19,835 nucleotides of DNA, taken from IMG/VR virus record IMGVR_UViG_2534681832_000045. One strand, 5' to 3'. Origin of the DNA: a virus. Its lineage: Duplodnaviria; Heunggongvirae; Uroviricota; Caudoviricetes. Positions 3,001 through 6,000 of this stretch are shown here, one piece after another. The position numbers are program-made. Position 1 is the stretch's first letter. The number at the start of each line of letters is the position of its first letter.

Positions 3001-6000
3001 TGTTTGCGCATTGATGCCGAGATACGCTTCCAGTCTTCGCGGTCGTTGTCGATAACTTCATTTTTTGCCCAGCGATGGATGCTGCCGTCAATGTTTCCGG
3101 CATCCACATCACCAGGCCAGAGAGCGTAGGCCAGTTCTTCATCCAGCGTTTTCCATGTCTGCTTGTATTCGCGACAAATGGCGGCAGTGACTGGGTTGAT
3201 TTTTCCTGCTGAGTTTTCAGTGTGCTGTTGATTGACTCTGGCGCTGGCGAGATCAACAACAGACGTGTATTTTCCAGTCTCTTTGCGCTCTGCGTCCTGC
3301 CGTTTTTTCCAGTTACGTAATTCAGCCTGAATTTCGGGCCATTTGGCACCCGGATTACATTTGTGTTTAACCCATCCGATAGCGAACAGTTTGCGTTCCG
3401 GATACATAGCGTTAATTTCAGGCGTTTTCATCAGTGCTTCAACGATATGCCCGTCAAAGGTAGCAACGTCTTCCTGCAGTAATTCCTGCGCGTCAATCGC
3501 CATATCAACGGTGATGTTTTCACATGTACCGAACTTAACCAGGACCGCGTTCTGTACTTCAGGGGACAGCTTGTCAAAATTGACGTTCATCGGATCGGAT
3601 TCTGGTTCGACCGGAATAAAGGAAGCGGATTCCTCATCCCAGCGGTTTTCCTGCATATATTCAGCATCCCAGGAATCGAGGGCAGGGCGGGGTATACCAG
3701 GTTTATCCTCGCAGACAAGAAATTTATAAGCGCAGTCCTGAGCAGCCGGATAATGTTCCAGGAATTGCCAGTGAAATTTTGCGCGGGCGCGACGTTCATC
3801 ACCGGCTTCAATGGCAGTGGCTACAGCGACGGCACCTTCTTCCTTTATTGCCTGTTCGTCCGGAATGGCGGCGCAAATAAAGACTTTACTCATTTTGTTT
3901 TAACCTCATTACAGATTTCAGGGTGAACGAATCCCTGCCATTGCTGGCATTTTTAATCCGTTGGTATGGCGTTAATATGGCTGGCGGGTTATCCAGCCGG
4001 TATTTCGTTATTCAGGTTCAGCGATACTTTTTTTAACGGGAGGCATTCACCGGGGATTTTTTGTTCGTCCCTTACCTGAATGCAGGATGACTTACTGTCA
4101 TAAATTCCGGTAATCACATTTTGTGGCTCACCCGTTATAAGAAAAACGGTCATCACCAGTGCAAATGCTGAAGTCACTGCTGTTCTCCGATAATACCAAG
4201 TTCAAGAAGGGCAATTCTGGAAAGTATGGAATTATCATTGAGAAGATAAGGTTCATATTTTCTCATCTTAATGGCATCTTCCGTAAACTCCCGGTTACTG
4301 AGCAGAACACCAATATCAAAACAACCTTCAGACGTATTAACGTTTGGTAATAACGTTTCCATTATCGCGTCCTCAACAATGAATTTTGTGATGCGGTGCC
4401 TGGTGCCTCCAGGTGACGTTAACTAGTTAACAATTAACGCCGGATACAGAGAATCCACCCATAACACTGTTTTTGGTTTTAACTGTTCCGCGTGCGCTCA
4501 GCCGCATTCACCACATCACAAAATTCACTTTAAAAAGGGCGGCAGAGCAGTCACGGAGTAAAACTGATACCGCCAAACGTCACCAGAAAATTGATAACAG
4601 AGGGCGTTGCAGCGGGGTTGTCACTTAAGCGTATGGTCAACCTGACAACCCGGTGTCCTCAACGGGGAAGGAATAACCCCTCCATACTTACCGACGCGCC
4701 ATTTCGCGGATTGCCACAACCGGAAGCGCACGGTCGACGAAAATTTAACGACAGGCTATCTATGAACCAGCTACCTCGCCGTGCGCTTTCGCGTTATGGT
4801 CTGACTTTTCAGAGAAATATCCTTTCAGTAAACTGTCAGTGCCGGATGTTCACCCGTGTCCGGCGCACGCACTCCACTTCACCCGTGGAGAACTCCTTAA
4901 TTACCAACCCTCAGGAGGGTGAATGTTAAAATCAACTCTTATTGCTAAATGCCTTTATCAAAATCGCATGGTAAGCAGCATTTCAATAGGCGAGTCTGCA
5001 GTTAAAAGTATTTTCGAAGAGTACTTTCCCGGGCATGATTTTAATAAATGGAATACCAAATTACCGCCAGCAGTTTCAACGCGTATTCTGAAAGCAACCG
5101 AAAGAGCAAGTACAATTCGCGTTAACTATTTCATTAAAGATTTGTGGGATCTTTGATATCCACAGAGCCTAAAGTATGTGCATATGGATGTGCTATTATG
5201 CGCCCTCGCAGATTTGCATCATTTTCTAAATTCACTGAACGAAACAGGGCATCAACAAGGCTCTGTACAATGCAAAGGCAATCGAAGACTGTCGCCGTTT
5301 CTGTTTTGATTGATGAAAGAACATGGCCATTCACGCAAACAGAAATTACCCGTTTATTAACATCGCTTTCCTGCTTTTGATTATCAGAACCATATAGCCC
5401 AGAAAAAGCATTGCGCACATTACGAACCATATTATCGATGGTTTCTTTTTCTGCGGTACTAAGGTCAAGAGTAGCCAGTTGTGAGCGAACTATATTCGAT
5501 GCCATTTCCTGTAATGGCGTTGGTAAATCTTTAAATTCCATTATTAGCCTCGTTGGTTAGCTATTAACGTGGGTATGTAATCATTCTGGCAATGCTTAAT
5601 GCCGCTGCTTTTTCCAGATTGGTGATATCCTGCTCCAGAGCGGACAGATTTTCAGCCTGCTTAGCCCTGGCTTCATTGGCCCATTTCAGGTCCTGCACCG
5701 CCTTAATTTTCTGGTGCATCCACTCATAAAGTTCATCATCGGTATAGTCTGGCGCGATGATGACGGGGGCTCGTTTCTGCATGTCGGCTCCTTGTGGTTA
5801 GCGTTGCCTGCTTTTTAACCACGTCAGGCGAGGTGGTATCCTCTGAGGGGTCTGTTACTCGAGAGGAAATTGGTTATGAATACAATCAAGTTTTCTTGCC
5901 CAGAATGTGGTGGCTAAGTCTTTGACACATCCTTTAAGCCGCAGGGCTCTGACAGTTTCGCGGGAGCCATCTGCAAAAATTGTGGTCACCTTGTAACTGA

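Follow-up and report, generated by a model that had tools for sequence, protein, structure and literature searches.

A conserved convergent gene pair with overlapping coding ends forms a mobile cassette in the early-left operon of a lambdoid prophage

Nun, a small protein made in lysogens of the HK022 prophage, binds the early transcripts of incoming lambdoid phages and blocks their expression; it carries an arginine-rich motif, is largely unstructured, and is not known to have a convergent partner. Convergent, overlapping units whose transcripts are mutually antagonistic are known from the immunity or early regions of phage lambda (OOP/cII) and coliphage 186 (pR/pL). A further point of comparison is sieB, which lies opposite the early-left operon in the Rac prophage of Escherichia coli K-12. 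Here, we analyzed a 19,835-nucleotide (nt) stretch of viral DNA (Caudoviricetes; IMG/VR record IMGVR_UViG_2534681832_000045), hereafter the window, which represents a lambdoid prophage integrated beside ompW. In its early-left operon, between ydfC and the small RNA (sRNA) DicF, a convergent gene pair encodes a protein of 77 amino acids (aa), which we call A, and a 135-aa protein whose C-terminal part we call the B domain. The lambda OOP/cII and 186 pR/pL arrangements involve a noncoding RNA partner or a promoter overlap, whereas here two conserved coding genes share 23 bp. The A-B association and its head-on geometry are conserved from Gamma- to Betaproteobacteria.

Gene A (4923 to 5156, plus strand) is an open reading frame (ORF) on the strand opposite the early-left operon, and the 135-aa gene (5134 to 5541, minus strand) is encoded on the operon strand and converges on it. 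Their 3′ ends share positions 5134 to 5156, exactly 23 bp, which encode ...IKDLWDL* on the plus strand and ...IKDPTNL* on the minus strand. We surveyed all intact A loci that genomes and IMG/VR yielded, which gave 19 distinct enterobacterial pairs from Dickeya, Serratia, Yersinia, Proteus, and uncultured phages. A convergent partner with a C-terminal B domain was present in all 19. The overlap across these pairs was 23 bp, except in three where A has one extra codon and the overlap is 26 bp. Partner proteins ranged from 77 to 194 aa, all ending in the B domain of approximately 75 aa, and a hidden Markov model (HMM) of this domain, trained on four sequences, recognized all 19 distinct partners at E ≤ 2e-20. 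The arrangement extends to a distant metagenomic pair (A approximately 38% identical, B HMM E = 1e-12, 23-bp overlap) and to Burkholderia ambifaria (B HMM E = 4.6e-5, 24-bp overlap). In enterobacterial copies, the overlap sequence is self-complementary at 56% of positions. A functional palindrome was considered and rejected: self-complementarity is not kept in the distant pairs L106 and L107, and we take it simply to follow from the encoding of the two C-termini. The Dickeya, Serratia, and Yersinia pairs adjoin a repressor gene. An Rfam scan of pair loci outside E. coli (L006 to L010, a set that left out L106 and L107) detected no DicF. On this basis we rejected a tie between the pair and DicF; because the pair occurs where Rfam found no DicF, its proximity to DicF in E. 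coli is incidental.

The two genes make up a 634-bp cassette (4910 to 5543) between ydfC and DicF. An initial annotation, made from the sequence alone, had described an AT-rich block here, suspected to be an indel, with a convergent 77-aa/135-aa pair overlapping by about 23 bp, good Shine-Dalgarno sequences on both genes, and the 77-aa gene antisense to the transcript carrying the DicF precursor. Each of these points held. The G+C content of the cassette is 39.3%, compared with 48.9% in each flank, and the cassette is cleanly missing from phages vB_EcoS-813R8 and Tritos (L002 and L003), where blastn alignment joined position 4909 to position 5544. Gene A is preceded by AGGAGG (4913 to 4918), 4 nt before its ATG, and the 135-aa gene by GAGG, 7 nt before its ATG. 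The antisense relationship follows from the ORF positions and the minus-strand Rfam match to DicF. The K-12 Qin prophage also lacks the cassette, leaving an untranslated gap of approximately 340 nt between ydfC and dicF. Among complete E. coli genomes, 657 of 5426 (∼12%) carry the cassette. Both proteins are identical to products of prophage Sp9 of O157:H7 strain Sakai, namely, ECs1762 (77 aa) and ECs1763 (135 aa). Between close copies, the ratio of nonsynonymous to synonymous polymorphism (pN/pS) was about 0 to 0.3 for both genes, which indicates purifying selection. Together, these data identify the two-gene block as a self-contained, horizontally mobile module of temperate phages.

Protein A belongs to phrog_10348 (E = 1.1e-47, residues 1 to 77 on positions 1 to 77 of the 77-position profile). 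Homologues of the same length and 55 to 72% identity were found in Klebsiella, Dickeya, Xenorhabdus, Salmonella, Morganella, Yersinia, and Serratia, with equal-length homologues in at least eight genera, and they share the motifs MLKSTLIAKCL, GE.AV..IF.EYFP, KWNT, and IRVDSFIKDLW. A profile search of 1.84 billion representative proteins yielded 163 clusters at 50% identity, nearly all of them stand-alone proteins of 74 to 80 aa, in which K3, C10, W43, and N44 are near-invariant; one member is from Burkholderia ambifaria. When three single distant family members were used as queries, nothing was retrieved from IMG/VR. The AlphaFold2 (AF2) model of A has five helices (predicted local distance difference test [pLDDT] score, 96.8; predicted template modeling score, 0.86), and no membrane segment was predicted. 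Foldseek found no structural relative of this fold in the PDB (best E = 1.5), and BFVD returned just a homologue. Sequence-profile searches with A and B gave no match in Pfam, NCBIfam, PADLOC, or PDB sequences, a Pfam scan of 35 diverse A-family members was equally empty, and no recognizable RNA-binding domain or fold was seen in A. Outside phages, an A homologue 43% identical to the window copy lies at 3989 to 4228 in a Psychrosphaera metagenome-assembled genome (L025), between a chemoreceptor-like gene and a glycoside hydrolase gene, with neither a B partner nor a prophage context.

Published data place protein A in contact with RNA. In uninduced enterohemorrhagic E. coli (EHEC) Sakai grown in MEM-HEPES, native ECs1762 was significantly enriched among RNA-associated proteins recovered by TRAPP (total RNA-associated protein purification), and a polynucleotide kinase (PNK) assay confirmed that the tagged protein crosslinks to RNA; the authors noted no detectable RNA-binding domain (PMC7618764, Nucleic Acids Res 2025). 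The plus-strand gene is therefore translated in uninduced culture, and its product contacts RNA. ECs1762 being 100% identical to A, this detection in the RNA-crosslinked proteome settles the question of translation that the initial annotation had raised for the plus strand. The other objection it had foreseen, a 77-aa frame not conserved as coding in homologous prophages, fails as well, since the frame is conserved across genera (55 to 72% identity at constant length; pN/pS, ∼0 to 0.3).

The 135-aa protein is built from two modules, a feature that the initial annotation missed along with the polymorphism of the site described below. Residues 1 to 62, beginning MEFKDLP... (5356 to 5541, minus strand), form an N-terminal module delimited by its PHROG matches, and residues 63 to 135 (5137 to 5355, minus strand; phrog_23433) form the B domain, delimited by alignments and the HMM. 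Against PHROG, the whole protein matched phrog_1363 (E = 4.8e-47) and, over residues 55 to 128, phrog_23433 (E = 1.7e-8); residues 1 to 63 also matched phrog_6937, phrog_2151, phrog_9419, and phrog_33007. Many E. coli proteins of 124 to 212 aa match the N-terminal module alone and have unrelated C-termini. A homologue search with the B domain by itself retrieved just three near-identical E. coli proteins. In the B-domain alignment, G12, T20, A23, D27, L45, E46, A49, G53, and H58 are invariant, and the domain ends in a conserved tail (LE.EAN.SG.T..H). Elsewhere B is found unfused, fused to a YdfC-like module (Yersinia; L010 and L104), or, in one phage, fused to a ClpX-type C4 zinc finger (L097, 4215 to 4685, minus strand; PF06689, E = 2.5e-8). 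The YdfC-like fusion suggests that YdfC and B take part in the same process. The AF2 model of the 135-aa protein, based on an alignment of E. coli sequences only, was unreliable (pLDDT, 44.6) and was not used for fold searches. It placed two helices in the N-terminal module and a β-hairpin, a helix, and an unstructured tail in B. Segments that fold upon binding a partner typically combine conserved sequence with a lack of confident structure, and the model hints weakly that the B tail may be one of them.

The cassette occupies one state of a polymorphic slot. Between ydfA/ydfC and dicF, E. coli genomes carry at least five alternative convergent pairs, A/B included. In each variant examined, an unrelated small gene converges on a protein with a common N-terminal module of approximately 55 aa (MEFKDLP...). 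Apart from A/B, the variants (L011 to L013, L015, L016, and L018) combine a 201-aa operon-strand protein with a 63-aa convergent gene (23-bp overlap; small gene in 8 of 5426 complete genomes), a 133-aa protein with a 64-aa gene (41-bp overlap; 126 genomes), a 208-aa protein with a 69-aa gene (abutting; 597 genomes), and a 126-aa protein with a 73-aa gene (11-bp overlap; 88 genomes). The small genes are unrelated to one another, each has its own PHROG family, and all are annotated by the Prokaryotic Genome Annotation Pipeline (PGAP). Three of them, A included, nonetheless share a leader and Shine-Dalgarno sequence, CTCAGGAGGGTGAA. The 201-aa protein also contains a B domain, followed by an extra 70-aa C-terminal segment, and its overlap with the 63-aa gene is again 23 bp.

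How closely does this slot resemble those already described? In K-12 Rac (L111), sieB (4172 to 4660) holds the same slot and orientation as A, on the strand opposite the early-left operon: the Rac order is racR-ydaG-ydaF-[sieB, plus strand]-kilS-kilR, and the order here is repressor-...-ydfC-[135 aa]-[A, plus strand]-DicF-dicB. The flanks also correspond, with the DUF1391 gene ydaF (related to ydfA) on one side and the sRNA kilS plus division inhibitor kilR on the other, comparable to DicF and DicB. The 3′ end of sieB overlaps the end of convergent ydaF by 4 bp. Both genes thus lie opposite an early-left operon, upstream of an sRNA/division-inhibitor pair, and the cassette is an accessory cassette in an early-left, sieB-type slot. 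The proteins differ: SieB has 162 aa (489-nt coding sequence), compared with a 77-aa helical RNA-binding protein, and a Pfam scan of both cassette proteins was empty, a result that covers SieB if Pfam has such a family. In position (same slot, opposite strand), sieB is a closer analogy than the initial annotation had recognized, while the defense or exclusion function it implied found no backing in PADLOC, Pfam, or NCBIfam. In PADLOC-DB v2 (5027 models), no family was hit at E ≤ 1 by the 77-aa, 135-aa, ydfC, or 118-aa proteins. The same architecture recurs in K-12 e14 (L110, 5498 to 6085), where, beside the repressor gene ymfK of the early-left operon, ymfI and ymfJ converge and overlap by 63 bp at their 3′ ends; ymfI/ymfJ were rejected as remote homologues of A or B (hhalign probability, <1%). 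Type II toxin-antitoxin and polymorphic toxin-immunity pairs are likewise small cognate pairs in which the N-terminal module stays constant while the C-terminal modules can be swapped, each accompanied by a small neighbor gene of its own. Unlike them, the pair is convergent and has no detected toxin, antitoxin, or immunity domain; type II toxin-antitoxin membership in particular found no Pfam, NCBIfam, or PADLOC family and no PDB relative by sequence profile.

We then considered the signals that could govern expression of the two genes. Upstream of A in the window is an inverted repeat, GCCGGA-N12-TCCGGC (4841 to 4864), whose loop holds TTCACC. Other genera (L007, L009, L010, L022, and L090 to L104) have a homologous repeat, GCCTG-N14-CAGGC, in front of A; its pairing is kept in 90.6% of alignment cells, with compensatory changes at two of five pairs. 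The element could be an operator or an RNA hairpin; RNAalifold gave the A leader a weak consensus (−2.85 kcal/mol). In the non-E. coli loci, a conserved block, GTGGTATCTT (TGgTATCTT), stands approximately 30 nt before the A start codon, and a TTCACC-like hexamer lies 16 nt upstream of it, within GCCTG-N14-CAGGC. By sequence, block and hexamer look like an extended −10 promoter belonging to A itself. A consensus scan found no terminator-like site between the two genes on either strand; the first on the strand of A is at 5587 to 5614 (plus strand), inside ydfC and antisense to it. A transcript of A would thus run antisense to the 135-aa gene over its full length, ribosome-binding site included. 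In the Serratia locus L009 and in L093, B is the first gene after the repressor terminator and a pL-like promoter, and its expression should therefore be repressor controlled. In the Yersinia frederiksenii locus (L010), the 700-bp gap upstream of A contains a 128-nt match to the tRNA model (4497 to 4624, minus strand; 38.5 bits), longer than a normal tRNA.

Taking these features together, we tentatively favor, at somewhat less than even confidence, a reading in which A, an RNA-binding protein expressed in the lysogen, acts to silence or exclude early-left transcripts, and the phage makes B on induction as its own antagonist or partner of A. A would be made in the lysogen, transcribed against the repressed early-left (pL/dicB-type) operon, and the B-domain partner, lying inside that operon, would be made only after derepression. 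Since the genes converge and share 23 bp with no terminator between them, their transcripts would be mutually antisense and their polymerases would collide, giving reciprocal expression, with only A made in the lysogen and only B once the prophage is induced. The conserved pairing, the head-on geometry, the placement of B inside a repressor-controlled operon, the promoter-like element that A has in most genera, and the RNA-binding A of uninduced cultures all fit such reciprocity. By analogy with sieB and Nun, A might work in the lysogen at the level of RNA, either by silencing early-left transcripts that are leaky or incoming or by some other form of exclusion directed at related phages; B, with its conserved tail predicted to be unstructured, may then oppose or assist A during lytic growth. 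HK022 Nun is the mechanistic model we would favor for A by this analogy, although A is predicted to be a folded five-helix domain and has no arginine-rich motif.

Several observations weigh against this proposal. A occurs without B in the Psychrosphaera genome (L025) and in a phage contig (L108), and the E. coli 201-aa variant has B but not A, the convergent partner there being the unrelated 63-aa gene. The E. coli leader retains the repeat but not the −10 block (4866 to 4909), and a consensus promoter scan of 4455 to 4922 found no plus-strand σ70 site. What TRAPP demonstrates is the protein's presence in a culture and not which cells make it, and its source may be a subpopulation undergoing spontaneous induction. 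The argument from a disordered B tail is weak because the 135-aa model is poor, which in turn reflects a shallow alignment. Finally, no similarity to any exclusion or defense protein emerged from Pfam or PADLOC.

Other explanations draw on overlapping evidence. The slot's location and variability would suit a dedicated anti-phage defense or abortive-infection pair, with A and B as sensor and effector against unrelated phages: early-left operons are known sites of morons and exclusion genes, with sieB in the Rac slot, the AT-rich cassette is mobile, and a slot with at least five alternative pairs follows the pattern of a defense hotspot. We consider this unlikely, given that none of the 5027 PADLOC models was matched even at E ≤ 1, that neither protein has a Pfam or NCBIfam domain or any enzymatic or membrane domain, and that the convergent arrangement predicts proteins that are not made together, which counts against a two-component complex in the lysogen. 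More improbable again, in our estimate, is that two unrelated accessory genes are kept together only by the overlap of their coding ends, being inseparable without damage to both. The shared 23 bp does encode both conserved C-termini, so that recombination between the genes is disfavored; mosaic exchange through conserved flanks is apparent, with the leader CTCAGGAGGGTGAA serving three unrelated small genes; and B has another small partner in the 201-aa variant. Mere linkage sits poorly, however, with an association that outlasts divergence of A to approximately 38% identity, changed N-terminal fusions of B, and changed overlap sequence and that reaches Betaproteobacteria. The alternative occupants of the slot are all convergent pairs too, which points to a functional reason for the architecture.

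Two accounts remain. One is a lytic-phase complex of A and B, in which A would be transcribed late, for example by read-through of late transcription around the circular genome, and the pair would then modulate early-left RNA processing, including that of the DicF precursor. A is oriented like the rightward and late operons, no A promoter was found in the E. coli leader, and A lies directly upstream of (antisense to) the DicF precursor region; set against these points are detection of the protein without induction (PMC7618764), conservation of the promoter-like element beside A in other genera, and the presence of the pair where Rfam found no DicF, and we rank this account below both of the preceding ones. 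Far less probable is an addiction module of toxin-antitoxin type, with one protein toxic (for instance, the RNA-binding A) and the other neutralizing it. Convergent genes that are not cotranscribed, A alone in some genomes and B without A elsewhere, and no toxin-antitoxin family in Pfam or PADLOC all speak against such a module, as does the growth of cultures with arabinose-induced tagged ECs1762 (pBAD24), which still reached an optical density (OD) of 0.8 (PMC7618764). These outweigh the small size and tight linkage of the two proteins, the RNA binding of A (PMC7618764), the conserved, apparently unstructured B tail resembling that of many antitoxins, and the pairing kept across genera.

What is already known of the locus is that its genes are annotated as hypothetical and that ECs1762 binds RNA. 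Neither the conserved convergent module of A and B, nor its 23-bp overlap, nor the polymorphic slot was described in the literature searched. A broader and more doubtful interpretation is that the slot is a hypervariable locus for an unrecognized class of convergent "effector-antagonist" cassettes, of which A/B would be the most ancient and widespread type, with A founding a new RNA-binding fold through which RNA silencing or exclusion would be imposed specifically in the lysogen. Members of such a class would join a constant N-terminal module of approximately 55 aa to a swappable C-terminal module, each with a cognate head-on small protein whose gene overlaps or abuts its own. If A does act on RNA in the lysogen and B counters it, prophages would have a new way of coupling a lysogen-only function to the lytic switch, through head-on genes with overlapping coding ends, and an RNA-binding fold would be added to the bacterial repertoire. 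The polymorphic slot offers a natural swap set for cognate specificity. Carriers of the cassette include O157:H7, O111, and O26 EHEC, and ECs1763 is already a typing marker. Lying beside DicF and DicB, the cassette may influence how tightly these toxic division inhibitors are silenced.

The surrounding prophage is 99.97% identical over 11.8 kb to a prophage of O111:H- strain 11128, and its close relatives include the "PPompW" phages and Sakai Sp9. Its early-left operon runs on the minus strand from a CI/DicA-type helix-turn-helix (HTH) repressor gene, matched by Pfam HTH_3, through a 118-aa ORF (5855 to 6211), ydfC (5564 to 5782; RefSeq annotation; phrog_1744, E = 4e-38) directly upstream of the cassette, and the 135-aa ORF to DicF (4537 to 4588; Rfam RF00039, 76.7 bits, E = 1.1e-15, against a gathering score of 48). 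Beyond DicF follow dicB (4174 to 4362; PF05358, E = 3.7e-38), a DUF1482/ydfD gene (Pfam E = 2.8e-15), and a gene for an 823-aa exonuclease. With ydfC and a DicA/CI-type repressor gene preceding DicF, dicB, and ydfD, all on a single strand, this is an operon of the Qin/dicB type, and the inserted cassette excepted, the gene order is that of K-12 Qin. A pooled Rfam scan of nine loci at the gathering threshold reported DicF in L015 only, though L012, L016, and L018 carry dicB at the usual spacing; the missed copies are either divergent or were lost to the filter of the pooled search.

The repressor gene (approximately 6418 to 6826, minus strand) has a 1-bp deletion in a T7 homopolymer at 6777 relative to O111:H- 11128, which puts the first ∼15 codons out of frame and leaves a residual ORF (6418 to 6738, GTG start) that lacks the start of the HTH. 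Either the deletion is genuine and inactivates the gene, or the homopolymer was misread in sequencing. In the O111 record, the adjacent cro already carries a frameshift annotation. Elsewhere in the window, a match to the sok antitoxin RNA (11703 to 11852, plus strand; Rfam, 103.9 bits) implies a type I toxin-antitoxin locus of the hok/sok type in the prophage. The late-regulatory region contains two tRNA genes (15135 to 15207 and 15301 to 15374, plus strand) and a match to the STnc100 sRNA (16152 to 16324, plus strand; 100.8 bits). Two more stretches are strongly AT rich, at approximately 18600 to 19300 (G+C fraction, 0.35 to 0.38) and 10350 to 11100 (0.29 to 0.40), the latter lying just upstream of the region that the O111 record annotates as paa (AcfC-family adhesin) and reaching into it.

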